Positions 38,718-46,111 of a stretch of 64,000 bases of DNA are shown here, one piece after another. Below the pieces are notes generated by a model. It was not told where the DNA came from and ran no database searches. It saw only the letters and a program-made list of their open reading frames with translations. This DNA comes from an uncultured Spirochaetota bacterium (GTDB taxonomy: Bacteria > Spirochaetota > Spirochaetia > SZUA-6 > Fen-1364). Made by a program: the position numbers and the translations under genes. Within the stretch, counting starts at the first letter, position 1. Every line of letters starts with the position of its first letter. Where the stretch lies: NCBI GenBank assembly GCA_963781885.1, contig CAWAHW010000006.1:96001-160000 (forward strand), in the 5' to 3' direction.

Positions 38718-40088
38718 TTACGGTGTCCTCCTCTGCAGTTGATTTTGACTTTCGGCAGACACTACCGCCGTGGGACGGAACGTGTCAAGCGCGCCGTGCA
38801 CCGCGGCAAGCGCGTCCTCCAGAAAGCCCGACAGTCCCAGGACGACGCTGTCCCACGCGCGGCGGACAAAGCCGGCGGCGTCCACGCTCGTCGTGGCAAG
38901 CAGGGGGATCCGCGCAATTTCTCCCGCGGGCGACGAGTAGACGAGCTCGCCCACCGTCTGGCCCTTGTAGACAGGGGCGACAAGCGGCGAACGGCTCAGC
39001 ATGGAGTAGGTGAGACCGGCCATTTCGTCGTCGCGCACGGTGAGCTGGAGGGGATTTGCCGGCGCCACGGCCACTCCCTTTGCCGTTCCCTTCCAGACGC
39101 GGACGGGCGGAAGCGTGGGGGTGTCCAGCGATACGGTGGTATAGGTGCGAAAGCCGTAGGAAAGAAGGGCAAGGGCGTCCTGCGCCCTTTTCATCATGCC
39201 TTCCGGCAGCGTGAGCCCCGCGACCCCGAGCAGCACGGCAACGACGCGGGTGGAGCCCTGGCGCGCGGTGATGGCCGCGGTGAAGTCCTCATCGTCCAGC
39301 CGGCCCGTCTTCAGGCCGTCCACGCCGACCCCCCACCAGACGAGGTTGTTGGCGTTGTACTGCTTTTTCACCGGGTCACGGGGCAGGCGCCCGTCCGGCA
39401 TGTTCTGCGCCAGGGGATATTCGAACTCCCGTACGGAATGCAGCTCTTCCAGCGCATCCGGGTGCAGCATGATATAGCGGCGGCAGAAGTCCGCGAACTC
39501 CCGCGCCGTGACGACATTCCCCTCCTCCGCGCCCGCGGGGTCGGTGAAATGCATCCGGGTGTAGCCCATGAAGCGCGCTTCGTCGTTCATCCACTGGACG
39601 AAGGTGCGGATGCTGCCGGCGGCATATTCCGCCAGTGCATTGGCGGCATCATTGCCCGATGCCACCGCCGCCCCTTTCATGAGCTCTTCCACGGTCACGA
39701 TCTGCCCCGGCCCCAGGTGCATGAGGGTGGAGCCCGGTACCTGGTGATCCGCCCACGCATTGGAGGACAGGTACACCACGTCCGTGCGGCGGATCTGCCT
39801 TTCGTCGAGCATGCGCAGCACGATGTGGAGCGTCATGAGCTTGGCAAGGGACGCCGGCACGAAGTCCTGGTCCGCGTTGTACTGGTAGAGGACACGGCCC
39901 GTTGCCTGGTCGATGAGGATGGCCGCGCGCGCCCAGCTCAGGAGCGGCTTGTCCGCCGGCATCCCCGTTGTCTGCACGGGCTGGGCACAGAGACTCCCGC
40001 CCATGGAGGCTGCAAAAACGAGTGCGATGAGCAGGTGACGTGCGAAACGGCGTTTCAGACCTTCCTCCCGTGTCTGAGACCTCGACAT
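38718..40088 (-). CDS. D-alanyl-D-alanine carboxypeptidase (peptidase S11)
   Basis: PASLAKLMT (SxxK), SGNDAA (SxN), GLKTG (KTG), PBP5 C-domain. Confidence 0.92.
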   Translation of the reverse strand: MSRSQTREEGLKRRFARHLLIALVFAASMGGSLCAQPVQTTGMPADKPLLSWARAAILIDQATGRVLYQYNADQDFVPASLAKLMTLHIVLRMLDERQIRRTDVVYLSSNAWADHQVPGSTLMHLGPGQIVTVEELMKGAAVASGNDAANALAEYAAGSIRTFVQWMNDEARFMGYTRMHFTDPAGAEEGNVVTAREFADFCRRYIMLHPDALEELHSVREFEYPLAQNMPDGRLPRDPVKKQYNANNLVWWGVGVDGLKTGRLDDEDFTAAITARQGSTRVVAVLLGVAGLTLPEGMMKRAQDALALLSYGFRTYTTVSLDTPTLPPVRVWKGTAKGVAVAPANPLQLTVRDDEMAGLTYSMLSRSPLVAPVYKGQTVGELVYSSPAGEIARIPLLATTSVDAAGFVRRAWDSVVLGLSGFLEDALAAVHGALDTFRPTAVVSAESQNQLQRRTP

Positions 40089-40173
40089 TCTGGATGGTGG
40101 TACGCGGCAGGTGACGAGCTGGCCGCAGTATACATCGAACGCCGCGCCTGCGGGAAGCGGCCGTCACTCATCC

Positions 40174-40292
40174 CAGCAGTCTCATTTTGGACCATCCGGA
40201 GCTGACGACCGGGCATTCTTGCCCAAAAATGGCTTATTACCATGGGACAAAATGAGAACTGCATCGTTCGGTTGCCAAACTGAAAATTGCTG
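40174..40292. mobile_element. MITE copy 1 (119 bp) with imperfect TIRs and a perfect 9-bp target-site duplication
   Basis: Ends CAGCAGTCTCATTTTGG...CCAAACTGAAAATTGCTG; flanked by CACTCATCC at 40165-40173 and 40293-40301; AT-richer than its surroundings; second copy at 42487. Confidence 0.9.
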
Positions 40293-40295
40293 CAC

Positions 40296-41786
40296 TCATC
40301 CGCAGATCCGGCGCACACTGTCCATGTCGAGGTTTTGTGCGACAACGTCCGCCACCCTGTCGATTTCCCGCTCCACGATGGCATGCAAGGGCTCACCCGT
40401 CTCCCGCGCGCGCCACCCGAGTGACGAAAGCCACGCGCGTCTGAAGGCGGGAGCGCCGAACACGCCATGCAGGTACGTGCCCCACACGCGGCCGTCCCGC
40501 GCCGCCGCGCCGTCCGGCGTGCCGTCCTCCCGCGTGAACACGGGCAGCCAGCCGGCGGCAGGGAACGTGCGCCCGCGATGTATCTCATAGCCTGACACCT
40601 CGCGACCGGCGCAGGAGCGGAGGAATCCCGGGCCATCGTTCACGGTGGCGGCCACCTGCCGCACCTCCTTCTCCTCCTCGAAGCTTGTCTCCACGGGGAG
40701 CAGGCCCAGGCCTTCCCGTGTGCCGGCGGCACCTTCACTTCCGCCCTGGTCGTTCACGGCAAGCCCCATCATCTGATAGCCGCCGCAGATGCCCACCACG
40801 ACTCCTCCCTGGTCCGCGTATGCCCGCACGGCGTGGCCGAAGCCCCGGGATGAAAGCCAGGCGAGGTCGGAGAGCGTCGCCTTGCTGCCGGGGATGATGA
40901 GCGCATCCGGCGAACCGAGGTCCCGCACCGAGGAGACGAACCGGACGTGCACACCGGCCTCCATGGCCAGAGGATCACAATCGTCGAAATTGGAAATGTG
41001 CGGCAGGTGGATCACCGCGACGTCCACGCCCCCGGGATCCGGGGAAAGCCCACCGCCGGAGATCATGGCCGCATCCTCCTGCGGCAGGCGCAGATTCTCC
41101 ATGTAGGGAATGACGCCCAGGGTGGGCACGCCGCTTGTGAGCTTCTCCAGCATCTGGAGTCCCGACGCGAGCTGGTCGGGGTCGCCACGGAACCTGTTGA
41201 TCACGAAGCCCTTGACGAGCGCCCGCTCCTCCGGTTCCAGGAGCGCGAGGGTGCCAACGAGCGCGGCAAAGACGCCGCCCCGCTCGATGCTCGCCGCGAG
41301 GAGCACCGGTGCGGAGCAGGCGCGCGCGACGCGCATGTTGACGATCTCTTCCTTCTTGAGGTTGATCTCCACCGGGCTTCCCGCCCCCTCGATAAGGAGG
41401 AGATCGTAACGCGCGCGCTGGCGCTCCAGCGCCTCTTCCACCGCTTTCCAGAGCAGCGGGCGGCATTCCGCCCAGTCATCGGGGCCGATGGATTTCCACG
41501 CCCTGCCGTTCAGCACGACCTGGGTGCGGTTCCCCGTCTCCGGCTTCAGAAGCACGGGATTCATATCGGCGTCGGGCTCCAGGCGGCACGCCTGCGCCTG
41601 CACGGCCTGGGACCTTCCGATTTCCGTTCCGTCGAGGCTCACCGCGGAGCTCAGGGAGAGATTCTGCGCCTTGAACGGCGCCACGCGGATGCCGTCGCGC
41701 GCGAAGATCCGGCAGAGCGCCGTCACGAGCAGGCTCTTGCCTGCCGCCGAGGAGGTGCCCTGGATCATGAGGACGCGTGCGGGCAT
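40296..41786 (-). CDS. cobQ: Cobyric acid synthase
   Basis: QGTSSAAGKS, PFKAQN, NPVLLKP, EGAGSPVEINL, ISNFDD, GICGGYQM, GTYLHG. Confidence 0.95.
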   Translation of the reverse strand: MPARVLMIQGTSSAAGKSLLVTALCRIFARDGIRVAPFKAQNLSLSSAVSLDGTEIGRSQAVQAQACRLEPDADMNPVLLKPETGNRTQVVLNGRAWKSIGPDDWAECRPLLWKAVEEALERQRARYDLLLIEGAGSPVEINLKKEEIVNMRVARACSAPVLLAASIERGGVFAALVGTLALLEPEERALVKGFVINRFRGDPDQLASGLQMLEKLTSGVPTLGVIPYMENLRLPQEDAAMISGGGLSPDPGGVDVAVIHLPHISNFDDCDPLAMEAGVHVRFVSSVRDLGSPDALIIPGSKATLSDLAWLSSRGFGHAVRAYADQGGVVVGICGGYQMMGLAVNDQGGSEGAAGTREGLGLLPVETSFEEEKEVRQVAATVNDGPGFLRSCAGREVSGYEIHRGRTFPAAGWLPVFTREDGTPDGAAARDGRVWGTYLHGVFGAPAFRRAWLSSLGWRARETGEPLHAIVEREIDRVADVVAQNLDMDSVRRICG

Positions 41787-41804
41787 CCCGCGTGGCGCCC
41801 TGTG

Positions 41805-42341
41805 CTACTGGGGCCCGGACTCGCCGCCCGAGCGGATGTTGATGCGGATCTCCTCCCCCGAATCCGGCTGCTCCCGAGGGGGAACGACGAGCCGCAGAAG
41901 CCCGTTGTGGTAGCGCGCCTCCGTGCCCGCCTGGTCGAACTTGTCGGCCGGCGCGTAGTACCGCTGCTCTTCGACGTCCTTCAGCTTCAGGCGGCGCTTG
42001 AAATACTGCACGCCCTCTTCACTCTCCAGCGCCTGCGGCGCCTTTGCCGAGAAGATGAGGTGGTCGCCGCGGAACTGCACGGTGAGGTCTTTCTCCTCGA
42101 ACCCGGCGAGGGCGATTTCCACCACGAGCTTCTTGTCGCGCGTGAGGTAGATCGTGGACGGGGGATACATGTAGGCGGGGTAGTAGTCGGGGTTGCCGAA
42201 TGGTCCCTTGCCGAAATGCTCGGCGGCCTGACGCATCCTTTCCGCGGCCTCCTGGTCGAAGTGGCCGCCGAAGTTTTCGGCGAACTTGAACGCTTCGTCC
42301 ATGATGCGGCCGAGGTCGAACGTGAATACCCGATTGGTCAT
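41805..42341 (-). CDS. Hsp20/alpha-crystallin family small heat-shock protein
   Basis: YPP..IY, EIALAGF, ARYHNGLLRLVVP. Confidence 0.88.
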   Translation of the reverse strand: MTNRVFTFDLGRIMDEAFKFAENFGGHFDQEAAERMRQAAEHFGKGPFGNPDYYPAYMYPPSTIYLTRDKKLVVEIALAGFEEKDLTVQFRGDHLIFSAKAPQALESEEGVQYFKRRLKLKDVEEQRYYAPADKFDQAGTEARYHNGLLRLVVPPREQPDSGEEIRINIRSGGESGPQ

Positions 42342-42486
42342 GGGAGTGCCTCCCTTGTGCAACGTGTCGGCTCCCCATGCGGGCGAGCCACCGGGCCCCC
42401 CATGCGGGGCGGCTCGAGGAAGCCACAGCCTCCACCCTCAATGTACTGATTGCCGGAGCGGGTGGACAAGTGAAGGAGGGCGCCGA

Positions 42487-42598
42487 CAGCAATTCTCAGT
42501 TTGGCAACCGAATGATGCAGTTCTCATTTTGTCCCCTGGTAATAAGCCATTTCTGAGCAAAAATGCTCGTCGTCAGCTCCGGATGGTCCAAAATGAGA
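42487..42598. mobile_element. MITE copy 2 (inverted relative to copy 1); its last 7 bp (44083-44089) are displaced by the IS insertion
   Basis: About 92% identical by eye to the reverse complement of 40174-40292; flanks GGGCGCCGA (42478-42486) and GGGCGCCGC (44090-44098) are an 8/9 TSD. Confidence 0.88.
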
Positions 42599-42701
42599 CA
42601 ATATGAAGTGCCCCCAGGTGGTTGCTACAACGTGGATCGGCCGTATCATGAGATTGGCGTCTCGATGCGGCACGCCACAAACAACGCACAAGGGGGCAGT
42701 C

Positions 42702-43796
42702 ATGGGTATTGTACATTACGTTGGCATGGACGTCGACAAAGAAAAGATCGCCATAGCGATCCTGAGCGGGCGCGATCAGAAGCCGAGGGCCGAGACGGTG
42801 ATTCGCAATGAAAAGAGCGTAATCCAGGCCTATTTCAAGAAGCTCCAGTCCGCGGGGGACTTGGTGACATGCTACGAGGCGGGATGTCTAGGGTATTCCC
42901 TGTATCGACAATTGACGGAACTGGGTGTGCCGTGTGCGGTGCTGGCTCCGTCTCAGATTCCACATCGTCCGGGAGATCGCATAAAGACCGATAGAAGGGA
43001 CGCTGTGATGCTTGCTCGCGCACTTCGGAGCGGGGATGTGAGTGCCGTTCATGTACCCACGCGGGAAGACGAAGCGGTTCGCGACTATCTACGAATGCTG
43101 GAGGACATGAAGTCCGATCTGCGCAAGGCCAAGCAGCGCGTGCTGGGTTTTCTTCTGCGGAGGCGGATACGTTATGAACAAGGAGCCACATGGACGCAGC
43201 CGCATCGAGCATGGTTGCAGGCTCTTGAGTTGGAGGATCCGCTGGAGCAGTTGACTCTCACCGAGTACCGCTGCCAAGTCGACGAGCTGGAGGAGAAGTG
43301 TCGGCGGATCAAGGCGGGCATCGAAGAGATCGCGGCAGGTAAAAGCTATGCCGAACCTGTAGCCAAGCTGAAGGCGTTCAAGGGCGTGGAGACGCTGATC
43401 GCCTTGTCGCTTGTTTCGGAGATCGGGGACTTTCGGCGCTTTGCAGGTGCGGATCAATTCATGGCGTTTTTGGGGTTGGTGCCCTCCGAGCGATCCAGCG
43501 GAAACAAGAGGCGCTTGGGAGGAATCACAAAGGCGGGTAATTCCCACCTGCGCAAACTTCTGGTGGAGGCCGCCTGGCAATACCGCAGCTACCATCCCAG
43601 TAGCACTCGGTTGATGAAACGACGCGAGGGTCTTTCTCCATCCTTGGTCAGCTATGCCAACCGTGCGTGCAGGCGGCTAAACAAGAAATTTCTGCGTCTG
43701 CTTTTTCGCGGCAAAGCTTCTCAGACCGTGGTGACGGCGGTGGCGCGAGAGCTCTCGGGGTTCCTGTGGGGCGCGATGGTTGATCGGGTGGCTTGA
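42702..43796 (+). CDS. IS110-family DEDD recombinase/transposase
   Basis: GMDVDK, YEAG, KTDRRDA (DEDD); EIGDFRRF, GLVPSERSSG (catalytic Ser loop), ITKAGN. Confidence 0.96.
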   Translation: MGIVHYVGMDVDKEKIAIAILSGRDQKPRAETVIRNEKSVIQAYFKKLQSAGDLVTCYEAGCLGYSLYRQLTELGVPCAVLAPSQIPHRPGDRIKTDRRDAVMLARALRSGDVSAVHVPTREDEAVRDYLRMLEDMKSDLRKAKQRVLGFLLRRRIRYEQGATWTQPHRAWLQALELEDPLEQLTLTEYRCQVDELEEKCRRIKAGIEEIAAGKSYAEPVAKLKAFKGVETLIALSLVSEIGDFRRFAGADQFMAFLGLVPSERSSGNKRRLGGITKAGNSHLRKLLVEAAWQYRSYHPSSTRLMKRREGLSPSLVSYANRACRRLNKKFLRLLFRGKASQTVVTAVARELSGFLWGAMVDRVA

Positions 43797-43812
43797 GGAG
43801 GCTGCGTATGCA

Positions 43813-44017
43813 ATCGAGGCAACCGGGACGGATGGGGAAGGTTCGTGGCGAACGGAGAATCCTCGAGCGGTTCTGCAGGCAGACTATGGTCTGATCCTGG
43901 TAATGAGACGGAGGCAAGCTCCTGACGATCACATTGGCCTGCGGTAACCAATCCACGCATATCAGACTGGTCGATCGTCGGTTATGCCCTTCTCCATCTC
44001 TTCGGGTTGGCCTCGAT
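43813..44017 (+). ncRNA. Putative bridge RNA / seekRNA of the IS1111-type element
   Basis: Closing stem 43813-43841 with 43988-44017; two internal loops carry segments matching the target (AGCGGTTCT, AATGAGA) and the donor junction (CACATTG, CATATCAGAC). Confidence 0.8.
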
Positions 44018-44058
44018 GTTCAGAAGGAGTTCTAAAGAAAAAAGGAGGCTTTTAGAGC

Positions 44059-44082
44059 TTGACGGGGGCACATCATATCAGA
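44059..44082 (+). promoter_or_regulatory. Outward-facing -35 box of a predicted circle-junction promoter
   Basis: TTGACG at 44059-64; circularisation places GACAAT 16 bp downstream. Confidence 0.55.
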
Positions 44083-44098
44083 ACTGCTGGGGCGCCGC

Positions 44099-46111
44099 TC
44101 AGACCCTGACGGGCATGACCAGAAAGGGGATGCCCAGCTGGTGGAGACGCCGCTGGACCGCGAAGGTGGTGTGGTTGAAGAGCAGCCGGGTAAGAAAAGA
44201 ATCTTCGGCGAAGACGATCTGCCCGCCGAAGAAGACGGCCGCGGGGTGTCTGCGATGGATTGTCACCGCCAGGCCGCAGATCTCGTCGGAGACGTCGGTG
44301 CCCACCGCGGAGTATCCCTCCGCGTGGAATCCCTCCGTCTCCAGGAAGCGCACGTACCGGTCCAGTCCCGCGTCCACGTGTGTCCGCAGGTCGTTGAGCC
44401 CTTCCACGCCCTTGAACCGGTCCGCGTCCACGATGCCCGCCTGGATGAATATCCAGTTGCGGAAGACATCGCCAAAGACCTTTCGGACGTTGAAGAGCGT
44501 ATGCAGGCCGGTGCCGTTGAATCCGGACACCAGGAGCACGGCGGTCTTCGCCTTCGGATCCAGGTGGGACTTCCTTTTGCGCGCATGCGCCGCCTGCACA
44601 GCCGCGACCGCGGCCGGCGCATCGCTCAGCTCCGTGACACCCGTCATGAGGTGGTCCAGGCGCGACAGCCGCCTGCCCGTCGATCTATAGAAGCGCTTCA
44701 CGACGATCGCGACCACCACGAGCGACCCGGTCACCAGAAGCGTGATCCACCCGCCCACGGCGAATTTGAGGATCACCTGGGAGACGAGGATGAAGCCCGT
44801 GAGGAGCAGGCCGAAGCCGTTGATGAGGATCTTCCGCTTCCAAGAGCGCACGGTCTTTCGCTCCTGCCACCAATGCCGGACCATGCCCGCCTGGGACAGG
44901 CAGAAGGTGATGAAGACGTTGATCGCATAGAGGACGATCAGGAAGGAAACGGCGCCCCGGCTCACGAGCATGAGCACAAGGGCGGCGCCGCCCATGAGCA
45001 CGATGCCGTTCTTGATCACCAGGCGCTCGCTGAGGAGGCTGAACTGGCTGGGCAGCCACCGGTCGATCGACATGTTGGCAAGCACGCGCGGGCCGTCGAG
45101 GAAGCCGGTCTGCGCCGCGACGAAGAGCAGCACCGCCTCGGAGATCAGCGTCACGAGCACAAAAGCGTAGCCGGGCGCGCCCCAGCCCGCGGCGATGCGC
45201 TCCATGAGCGTGGCATTCAGGGTCCTGCCCGGCACCTTCACCACGCCGAAGAGCAGGTACCCGATCATGAGCCCGGCCGCCATGAAGGCAAGGGAGACGG
45301 CCATGTAGCGCATCGTGCGCTTGGCGGTCTGCACGCGCGGCTCGCGCAGGATGGGAAGACCGTTGCTCACCGCCTCGATGCCCGTGTAGGTGCCGGCGCC
45401 CATGCTGTAGGCGCGGAGTATCAGCACGAAGACGCCGAAGGTCCCGAGCTGCGTCGCCGCGGCGCCCGTCTCCCGGACGGTGCTGTTCGCCACGGCGCCC
45501 ATCTCCGGCAGGTGCGCGCCGATTGCGTAGAGCACGGCAAATGTGTGCGTCACGAGGAAGAGCAGGAAGATGGGCACCAGCGGCGCCACCGATTCCTTGA
45601 CCCCGCGGAGATTGAGCACCGTGAGCCCGAGGACCCCCACCACGGCAAGCACGATCTTCAGCGGCTGCGCGGCAACGGGAAGAAAGCTGAAGATGGCATC
45701 GGCGCCGCTCGCAATGGAAAGGGTGATGGTGAGGACGTAGTCGATGAGGAGCGCGCAGCCGGAAATCATGCCGATTGTCGGGGAGAGCAGCTTGCTCGCC
45801 ACGAGATAGCCGCCGCCGCCCGACGGAAAGAGCTCCACGATCTGGGAATAGCTTGCGGCAATCACGAAGATCGTGACGGCCGTGGCAAGGGCGACGAATA
45901 TGCCCAGGTAGCCGTGCCGGCCCAGGGACAGGAAGGACTCCTCGGGGCCGTAGTTGGCGGATGAGAGCCCGTCCGCTCCCAGGCCCACCCAGGCGAAAAA
46001 GGCGATCAGGGAGAGCTTGTGGAAAAGGTTCGGGTCGCGGATGTCCCGCGCGCCGCCGATCACGGCGGTCCGGAGCTTGTCGATGATGCCCGTGTGTTCG
46101 TGGCTGCTCAT
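44099..46111 (-). CDS. APC-family permease (KimA/YdaO-like)
   Basis: ADGLSSANYGPEE, GGGGYLVA, DYVLT, NLRGVKES, TGIEAVSNG. Confidence 0.85.
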   Translation of the reverse strand: MSSHEHTGIIDKLRTAVIGGARDIRDPNLFHKLSLIAFFAWVGLGADGLSSANYGPEESFLSLGRHGYLGIFVALATAVTIFVIAASYSQIVELFPSGGGGYLVASKLLSPTIGMISGCALLIDYVLTITLSIASGADAIFSFLPVAAQPLKIVLAVVGVLGLTVLNLRGVKESVAPLVPIFLLFLVTHTFAVLYAIGAHLPEMGAVANSTVRETGAAATQLGTFGVFVLILRAYSMGAGTYTGIEAVSNGLPILREPRVQTAKRTMRYMAVSLAFMAAGLMIGYLLFGVVKVPGRTLNATLMERIAAGWGAPGYAFVLVTLISEAVLLFVAAQTGFLDGPRVLANMSIDRWLPSQFSLLSERLVIKNGIVLMGGAALVLMLVSRGAVSFLIVLYAINVFITFCLSQAGMVRHWWQERKTVRSWKRKILINGFGLLLTGFILVSQVILKFAVGGWITLLVTGSLVVVAIVVKRFYRSTGRRLSRLDHLMTGVTELSDAPAAVAAVQAAHARKRKSHLDPKAKTAVLLVSGFNGTGLHTLFNVRKVFGDVFRNWIFIQAGIVDADRFKGVEGLNDLRTHVDAGLDRYVRFLETEGFHAEGYSAVGTDVSDEICGLAVTIHRRHPAAVFFGGQIVFAEDSFLTRLLFNHTTFAVQRRLHQLGIPFLVMPVRV

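Follow-up and report, generated by a model that had tools for sequence, protein, structure and literature searches.

An insertion sequence (IS) in the DNA of an uncultured Spirochaetota bacterium interrupts the right terminal inverted repeat (TIR) of a 119-bp miniature inverted-repeat transposable element (MITE). It lies in a stretch of 64,000 nt (positions 96,001 to 160,000 of contig CAWAHW010000006.1, assembly GCA_963781885.1), hereafter the window. We consider it very likely, taking the explanation as a whole, that this element is an active or recently active IS of the IS1111 group of the IS110 family, directed to the MITE end by a guide RNA of its own. Its copies in the genome have identical junctions, they were inserted independently, and the two guide segments of the candidate RNA covary with the flanks of the elements that carry them.

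Insertion sites of the IS

The MITE in the window is 119 bp long and is divided by an insertion of 1484 bp (coordinates of the features are collected in Table 1). The left junction reads ...CCAAAATGAGA/CAATATG (42598/42599) and the right one ...CATATCAGA/ACTGCTG (44082/44083), the slash marking the junction; as AGA is repeated at both, the boundaries 42596-44079 through 42599-44082 are interchangeable. Deletion of 42599-44082 restores CCAAAATGAGAACTGCTG, the reverse complement of which matches the left TIR (42487-42504) at 16 of 18 positions, and behind the restored end stands the 9-bp duplication with eight of nine positions matching; a preliminary description of this DNA had noted this restored end. 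The restored site is real ancestral sequence, since the uninterrupted end is carried by IS-free congeners: two genomes of the same genus have 22 and nine matches to the MITE and none to the IS, and among the six MITE copies inspected in them five have CCAAAATGAGAACTGCTG uninterrupted and the sixth has one substitution.

The genome searched consists of seven contigs (4.64 Mb, ∼63% G+C). Anchored on an internal motif, the MITE (∼119 bp) was found in 13 copies with no open reading frame of its own, nine filled by the IS and four empty, with exact 9-bp duplications flanking other copies. We call it a MITE for its length of 119 bp, the lack of an open reading frame, the 16/18 match between its TIRs, the 9-bp duplications, the 13 copies and an autonomous relative with like ends (described below).

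BLAST revealed nine copies of the IS, seven of them full-length with 99.87-100% identity and two incomplete, one without IS positions 3-599 and one running into N. The left junction is the same in 9/9 copies, with the MITE end ...AAAATGAGA on the left. The right junction is the same in the eight readable copies (the ninth being that which runs into N), and each of these eight right ends continues with ACTGCTG and then with a 9-bp copy of the sequence preceding the MITE left TIR. All nine copies are in one target and one orientation, with no target duplication and only the core AG(A) at both junctions; none of them, across the genome, lies in unrelated sequence. This pattern is far beyond chance, and the earlier proposal that the IS is programmed to enter the MITE TIR agrees with every copy, 9/9 being in the same base of the right TIR. 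In the copy at C2:775980-776866 the deletion of positions 3-599, which begins exactly at the left junction, took away the left repeat together with the part of the gene for the N-terminal half.

The preliminary description had also taken AGA as the core of the recombination site. AGA does stand at both window junctions; in relatives of the IS (see next section) that have T, G or C as the first base of the right flank, AG alone is common to both junctions, and the core is therefore most likely AG. The extra A in the window would belong to the IS left end and, coincidentally, to the target.

The product of the transposase gene matches Pfam domains PF01548 (DEDD_Tnp_IS110, E 3.8e-13) and PF02371 (Transposase_20, E 4.8e-22) as well as the NCBIfam model NF033542, 'IS110 family RNA-guided transposase' (237 bits, cut-off 140). 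Its best plasmid matches were 'IS110 family transposase' genes with 44-46.5% identity across 96-98% of the query. The open frame could alternatively begin at 42603. The protein aligns with the IS621 transposase (8wt6, E 1e-7) through the D, E, D and D positions and the SG motif, residues that are reported as catalytic in the IS621 structure and presumably have the same roles here. The segment GLVPSERSSG, aligned with the SG of IS621, corresponds to the motif GL-P----S(t)G carried by the IS1111 group in the C-terminal domain; the length of 364 aa compares with 330-350 aa given for transposases of this family (PMC11187229).

Non-coding DNA amounts to 286 bp 3' of the gene (43797-44082) versus 103 bp 5' of it (42599-42701), so that the longer side is downstream, as in the IS1111 group. 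Elements of this group are described as having subterminal inverted repeats, usually of 11-13 bp (range 7-17 bp), with terminal extensions that are asymmetric, 7 bp long at the left end and 3 bp at the other (PMC11187229). If the repeat is read as 13 bp (ATGAAGTGCCCCC) and AG(A) is given to the left end, a matter of convention with AGA standing at both junctions, the extensions are AGACAAT (7) and ATC (3), the values of the IS1111 group. The domains, the subterminal repeats and the long non-coding region 3' of the gene all speak for the IS1111-type assignment made in the preliminary description. The IS left end also contains, upstream of the transposase start, a promoter-like TTGCTA-16-TATCAT (42622-42649, + strand), a match to consensus only.

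Guide segments and flanking sequences

The region downstream of the transposase gene has a well-aligned block of ∼180 nt in common with relatives of the IS. RNAalifold, applied to ten sequences, predicted 40 pairs, eight of them with compensatory changes; the latter include a long closing stem, a GC/CG swap split five versus five and a UA/CG swap. Two stretches vary within an otherwise invariant frame, AATCCTCG ... GAGGCAAGC. The first, the top-strand guide, consists of the 9 nt after AATCCTCG and pairs with the core AG and with the 7 nt that follow it in the right flank of the element itself. The second, the bottom-strand guide, consists of the 7 nt before A-N-N-GAGGC (TAATGAG, 43901-43907, in the window) and repeats the 7 nt, core included, with which the left flank ends; in the window, AATGAGA at 43902-43908 is an exact 7-nt match to the target. 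The IS1111 seekRNAs have the top-strand complement 5' of the bottom-strand match, with an overlap at the insertion point, and the guide order of the IS110 type is the reverse (PMC11187229); in the window, with 43866-43874 before 43902-43908, the order is that of IS1111 seekRNAs.

Relatives of the transposase were collected from nine usable genome loci (45-67% identity) and 55 metagenome loci, which together with the window gave 65 elements, many of them related to one another. The top-strand guide was scored in 35 of the 65 elements, those with the guide and at least 9 nt of right flank, and the bottom-strand guide in 32. Top-strand pairing was complete (9/9) in 15 elements, 8/9 in 12, 7/9 in three and 6/9 in five. 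Among 26 distinct guide/target combinations 6.15 of the seven non-core positions paired on average, against 3.37 ± 0.31 in permuted pairings, with 0/10,000 permutations reaching the observed value. For the bottom-strand guide the match was 7/7 in two elements, 6/7 in 12, 5/7 in 14, 4/7 in three and 1/7 in one, the last being probably mis-anchored; 20 distinct combinations matched at 3.15 of five non-core positions, against 1.70 ± 0.24 in permuted pairings, and again 0/10,000 permutations reached the observed value. Examples of covarying guides and targets are AACTGAACT with AGTTCAGTT, AACTCAACT with AGTTGAGTT and TATCAACCT with AGGTTGATA. The guide RNA that the preliminary description had placed within the element is thus upheld by the covariation of both guide segments with their own flanks.

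We propose the following mechanism. The two guides would flank a hairpin in one loop of a structured guide RNA at the 3' side of the IS. There AGCGGUUCU (43866-43874) would pair with the top strand at the core and right half of the target (AG-AACTGCT), and AAUGAG(A) (43902-43908) with the bottom strand at the left half and core (AATG-AG), so that both guides together would specify ...AATGAG/AACTGCT..., the right TIR of the 119-bp MITE. The IS would excise as a circle with its ends abutted, the predicted junction being CATATC-AG-ACAATATG. Recombination of the circle with an intact MITE end would take place at the core AG, in a single orientation and with no duplication. Each insertion would place 1.5 kb between the outermost 7-8 bp of the MITE end and the remainder of the MITE, and probably immobilises that MITE copy. 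Production of the RNA, formation of the circle, the recombination chemistry and inactivation of the MITE are steps that we infer.

The IS ends, ...CATATC-AG and ACAATATG..., and the subterminal repeats are shared by the relatives. A candidate donor-recognising segment in the RNA region, CATATCAGAC, repeats the sequence of the IS right end and core, extended by the first base of the left end, and ATATCAG within it is invariant in 10/10 aligned elements; with the same ends in all relatives, this segment lies beyond the covariation test. IS1111 orthologues are described as often holding the donor-binding bases in a multi-loop rather than in a simple internal loop (PMC11208160). Across the joined ends of the IS, TTGACG would stand 17-18 nt from ACAATA/CAATAT, a poor match to a -10 box; conservation of CTTGAC suggests a promoter formed only when the ends join in a circle. 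Element L046 appeared to have a right end abutted to a left end (L046:1860-1945), its left flank ending in CATATCAG, 8 nt that are likewise found at the IS right end. We rejected a junction of tandem copies or of a circle there, the upstream DNA being no other copy of the IS. Contigs of four sequencing runs of DNA contained no joints, and hence neither a circle junction nor a read across an empty site, a result that bears on neither expression nor activity; one of these contigs matches the copy on C1 and not that of the window.

Filled and empty sites provide further contrasts. Each MITE has an internal inverted copy of the target (...AATGAGAACTGCA..., ∼42517-42531 in the window), which fits the full bottom-strand guide and 8/9 positions of the top-strand guide, differing at the distal guide position. 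Such internal copies were filled in 0/13 cases versus 9/12 for intact ends (Fisher p = 1.1e-4). Sites continuing CTGCTG were filled in nine of ten cases, and those fitting both guides but continuing CTGCTT in none of three. The latter sites comprise the ends of two empty MITE copies on contig C2 and one site outside any MITE, at C4:720262 (AAATGAGAACTGCT), which continues with T, not G. The empty MITE on contig C1 has the exact restored end CCAAAATGAGAACTGCTG, its sole occurrence in the genome.

An empty MITE is also present in the window, where the preliminary description had seen a near-identical empty site. The copy is indeed empty; it is not an intact target, because it reads CCAAAATGAGACTGCTG, one A short at the crossover, and the guide no longer fits. 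This 1-nt deletion, which shifts the right half out of register, accounts for the copy being empty. The missing A is the only indel in the target of this copy (40174-40190, - strand); it may reflect survivorship, mutated targets staying empty, or may be an excision scar.

Several observations weigh against a guide RNA acting as described. Rfam yielded no family for 39500-45000 at E up to 1, a result that is uninformative if no seekRNA/bridge RNA family is curated there. Single-sequence folds of the window were no better than shuffles (z -1.26 and -1.44), with z -2.76 for the fold of L004; as such folds are uninformative alone, it is the alignment that carries the structural support. A search for a second donor guide, one complementary to AG-ACAAT at the IS left end, yielded in the alignment only an imperfect ATTGGNCT with an extra base. 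The top-strand offset (0-2 nt) was picked for each element, which slightly raised the observed score. Five of the 35 relatives pair at only 6/9, including L001 and L043 with a right flank misfitting the guide, and in most elements the bottom-strand guide matches at only 5-6 of 7 positions. Also, the guide as defined leaves unexplained the empty internal copies (13/13) and the three empty CTGCTT sites. The last point suggests a role of the distal guide pair and of the next base outward, or else the reading of something besides the two guides.

One could suppose that the transposase protein alone reads the target, by TIR sequence or its structure, and that the non-coding region serves, e.g., regulation. 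Here the guide RNA is a prediction from DNA sequence and has no Rfam match; the unused internal copies and CTGCTT sites, which the guide alone does not explain, also point this way. We find recognition by protein only very improbable, as the guides change base for base with the flanks in the 26 distinct combinations, a level that the permutations never reached, and as experiments in the family have shown the RNA to be essential and programmable (PMC11187229; PMC11208160).

Independence of the insertions

The MITE parts that flank the nine IS copies are only 69-95% identical (median 76%, 36 pairs) and fall into two subfamilies, and every filled copy carries its own 9-bp MITE duplication. Since the IS copies are near-identical while their flanks are so diverged, the insertions were separate events: the IS recently and independently entered old MITE copies.

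Another route of spread would be homologous recombination or gene conversion through the MITE flanks, with no role of the IS's own recombinase. Among the seven full-length IS copies only two positions vary, 263 (synonymous; window 42861) and 740 (Gly to Arg; window 43338), and all four combinations are present, which suggests exchange between copies or recurrent mutation. Some exchange may therefore have occurred. As a means of spread, however, such exchange is hardly credible, because homology on the right side is limited to 7 bp of MITE, followed by a unique duplication; moreover, the left flanks are down to 69% identity and the junctions are base-exact in all copies. No more credible is it that the DDE transposase mobilising the MITE copied a composite MITE::IS unit in its entirety, with the IS not inserted nine times: each filled copy is bounded by MITE TIRs and the MITE-typical 9-bp duplication, and three copies of a putative autonomous parent are present, but whole-unit copying predicts equally similar flanks and is already contradicted by flanks of 69-95% in two subfamilies around IS copies of at least 99.87% identity, as well as by relatives in other phyla, which occupy the same TIR position and have guides that fit the flanks of each.

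At one locus (C1:277900-281500) a MITE::IS copy directly adjoins a copy of the 1653-bp IS described in the next section. There the 9-bp sequence CCGAGAAGC stands between the two elements and also on either side of the pair, three occurrences in all; two insertions, one after the other, in the same 9-bp target would be expected to leave this pattern.

Host transposons of the IS and its relatives

Also present in the genome, in three copies, is a 1653-bp element that has MITE-like TIRs and a 9-bp duplication and codes for a protein of 437 aa. This protein has sub-threshold matches only, to the Pfam families DDE_Tnp_1 and DDE_Tnp_1_assoc and to an NCBIfam IS4 model, and the element may represent a poorly described IS group. 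Judged by its ends, the element is the likely autonomous parent of the MITE. Its TIRs misfit the guide, and all three copies are uninterrupted.

Six relatives of the IS (L001, L003, L043, L044, L045 and L071) have in the left flank a gene for a homologue of the 437-aa protein (47-59% identity), with its N-terminus 91-115 nt from the IS junction. Given this flanking gene and its distance, the six are inserted in the same end of autonomous transposons belonging to that family; L048 and L073 are in other small elements with like ends. Inverted copies of the relatives' targets were not found within 1.5 kb of the left flank at up to 6/22 mismatches, and it was their transposase, or else short motifs of the TIR, that identified the host elements of the relatives.

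A second, larger group of relatives (L004-L006, L051-L064 and others, from several phyla) is inserted in a conserved motif of ∼34 bp, CATAACATAGAG/TT(C/G)AG(T/C)TGC...CGCCGAATCAG, the single-base variants of which are tracked by the top-strand guide. Left flanks in this group are alike over ∼12 nt only and right flanks over ∼22 nt; an attC-like reading of the motif was considered. The left flank of L005/L008 was tried as a repeat and rejected, as it is single-copy and orthologous in two congeners; L005/L008 represent one old insertion and not a repeat family.

The closest relative found, L041 on a metagenome contig, has a transposase 91% identical to that of the window and a quite different left flank (…TTCGTGTGTGAG). 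It is probably a case of recent re-targeting; its contig stops short of the guide region.

Two A-to-G changes convert AGCAATTCT, the guide form of the relatives, into AGCGGTTCT. One could speculate that this IS1111-type lineage is a long-term specialised parasite of one DDE transposon family and its MITEs, its guide re-programmed base by base as the TIR diverges, and possibly an RNA-guided brake on its host; we hold this idea tentatively, as possible and somewhat short of probable.

Table 1. Coordinates of the IS, its candidate guide RNA, the MITE and related elements (positions in the window unless a contig is given)
Feature	Position	Strand	Remark
IS1111-type insertion sequence	42599..44082	+	1484 bp; nine genome copies
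Left subterminal inverted repeat ATATGAAGTGCCCCC	42601..42615	+	14/15 complementary to 44064-44078; kept in relatives
Transposase/recombinase gene	42702..43796	+	364 aa from ATG after AAGGGGG
Conserved structured non-coding RNA region, candidate long seekRNA/bridge RNA	43826..44006	+	alignable in ten elements
Top-strand guide AGCGGTTCT	43866..43874	+	pairs with target AGAACTGCT: eight Watson-Crick pairs and one G-T
Hairpin between target guides	43875..43900	+	relatives keep a hairpin of different sequence
Bottom-strand guide AATGAGA	43902..43908	+	same as target top strand, left half and core
Candidate donor-recognising segment CATATCAGAC	43958..43967	+	same as IS right end, core and first base of left end
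TTGACG, candidate -35 box of circle-junction promoter	44059..44064	+	CTTGAC conserved in 10/10 aligned elements
Right subterminal inverted repeat GGGGGCACATCATAT	44064..44078	+	15 bp; kept in relatives
MITE target-site duplication, left copy GGGCGCCGA	42478..42486	+	8/9 match to 44090-44098
Filled MITE, left 112 bp	42487..42598	+	left TIR 42487-42504; inner right TIR ends ...CCAAAATGAGA
Filled MITE, outer 7 bp of right TIR (ACTGCTG)	44083..44089	+	cut off by the IS
MITE target-site duplication, right copy GGGCGCCGC	44090..44098	+	9 bp
Unfilled MITE copy	40174..40292	-	9-bp duplication GGATGAGTG on both sides; right end without one A at crossover (GAGACTGCTG)
1653-bp element, three copies outside the window	C1:278052-279704, C4:220865-222517, C6:77551-79203 (L012)		

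Discussion

Targeting of a transposon end by an IS of this kind has a precedent: IS4321 and IS5075 reportedly target the 38-bp TIRs of Tn21-family transposons, as Partridge and Hall are said to have found in 2003. Compared by description, those elements and the IS in the window are alike in being IS1111-type, in having subterminal repeats and in occupying one position and orientation in the TIR of another transposon. They differ in the host, which is there of the Tn3 family and here a 119-bp MITE or, in relatives, an IS of ∼1.65 kb with an IS4-like DDE transposase; and, unlike IS4321 and IS5075, the window clade is hosted by uncultured Spirochaetota and other environmental phyla. Nearly 900 insertions of IS4321 have been noted (PMC11187229).

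Among elements with a demonstrated seekRNA (ISEc11/ISXne4, ISPa11, ISKpn4 and ISPst6) we see the same downstream non-coding region, with the top-strand complement first and an overlap at the insertion point, and natural re-programming among relatives is also common to them and the window clade (PMC11187229). Targets of IS1111-family elements with a seekRNA are often repeats, e.g. repetitive extragenic palindromic (REP) sequences and attC (PMC11187229); the element described here differs in target class, in transposase length (364 aa versus 330-350 aa) and in that its RNA is a prediction from genomic DNA. ISPpu9/ISPa11-type elements are similar in being multi-copy members of the IS110 family inserted in multi-copy intergenic REP repeats (PMC12288879; PMC1525189). 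REPs, however, are not transposon ends, whereas the target here is the functional end of another mobile element.

With IS621 of the IS110 group and its bridge RNA, the window element shares a DEDD and serine recombinase, a 2-nt core common to donor and target, and reading of both target strands from one loop. IS621, however, carries its RNA in the left end, with the guides in the opposite order and with separate internal loops for target and donor, each having two guides, while the window element has its RNA in the right end and long subterminal repeats; no two-sided donor-binding loop of the IS621 type was found in the window element, where a single donor-like segment was seen. The window element works like one with a bridge RNA but has the layout of the IS1111 (seekRNA) group.

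The mechanism as such is already known from the seekRNA and bridge RNA papers of 2024, and TIR targeting from IS4321/IS5075. In the literature we found no IS110/IS1111 element targeting a MITE or an IS4-like TIR, although ISfinder, the supplements of PMC11187229 and PMC11208160 or the 2003 paper of Partridge and Hall may list a member of this clade. What is new is the clade itself and its host, an IS4-like DDE transposon with MITEs; the base-by-base covariation of guide and TIR across phyla, together with the natural specificity contrasts; and the six relatives inserted in the same end of autonomous transposons, with a transposase homologous to that of the putative parent of the MITE.

The locus offers a compact natural data set on the specificity of an IS1111-type RNA-guided recombinase, in which the contrasts between filled and empty sites suggest determinants beyond the 9-nt guide. 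As a candidate tool it offers a further small recombinase, of 364 aa, for which the guide is mapped; this is useful but not unique. The MITE family may serve the IS as a safe landing site, as the preliminary description had proposed.

After IS4321/IS5075 the locus provides a second clear case of an RNA-guided IS living in the ends of another transposon. If the lineage is indeed a specialised parasite, it would without exception use one position of the transposase-proximal TIR, be the host one of the Spirochaetota, of the Pirellulales or another environmental bacterium, and the interruption of nine of the 13 MITEs in this genome may act as a brake on that transposon family. Our observations hint that hyperparasitism can persist across phyla, with the guide tracking the TIR of the host.

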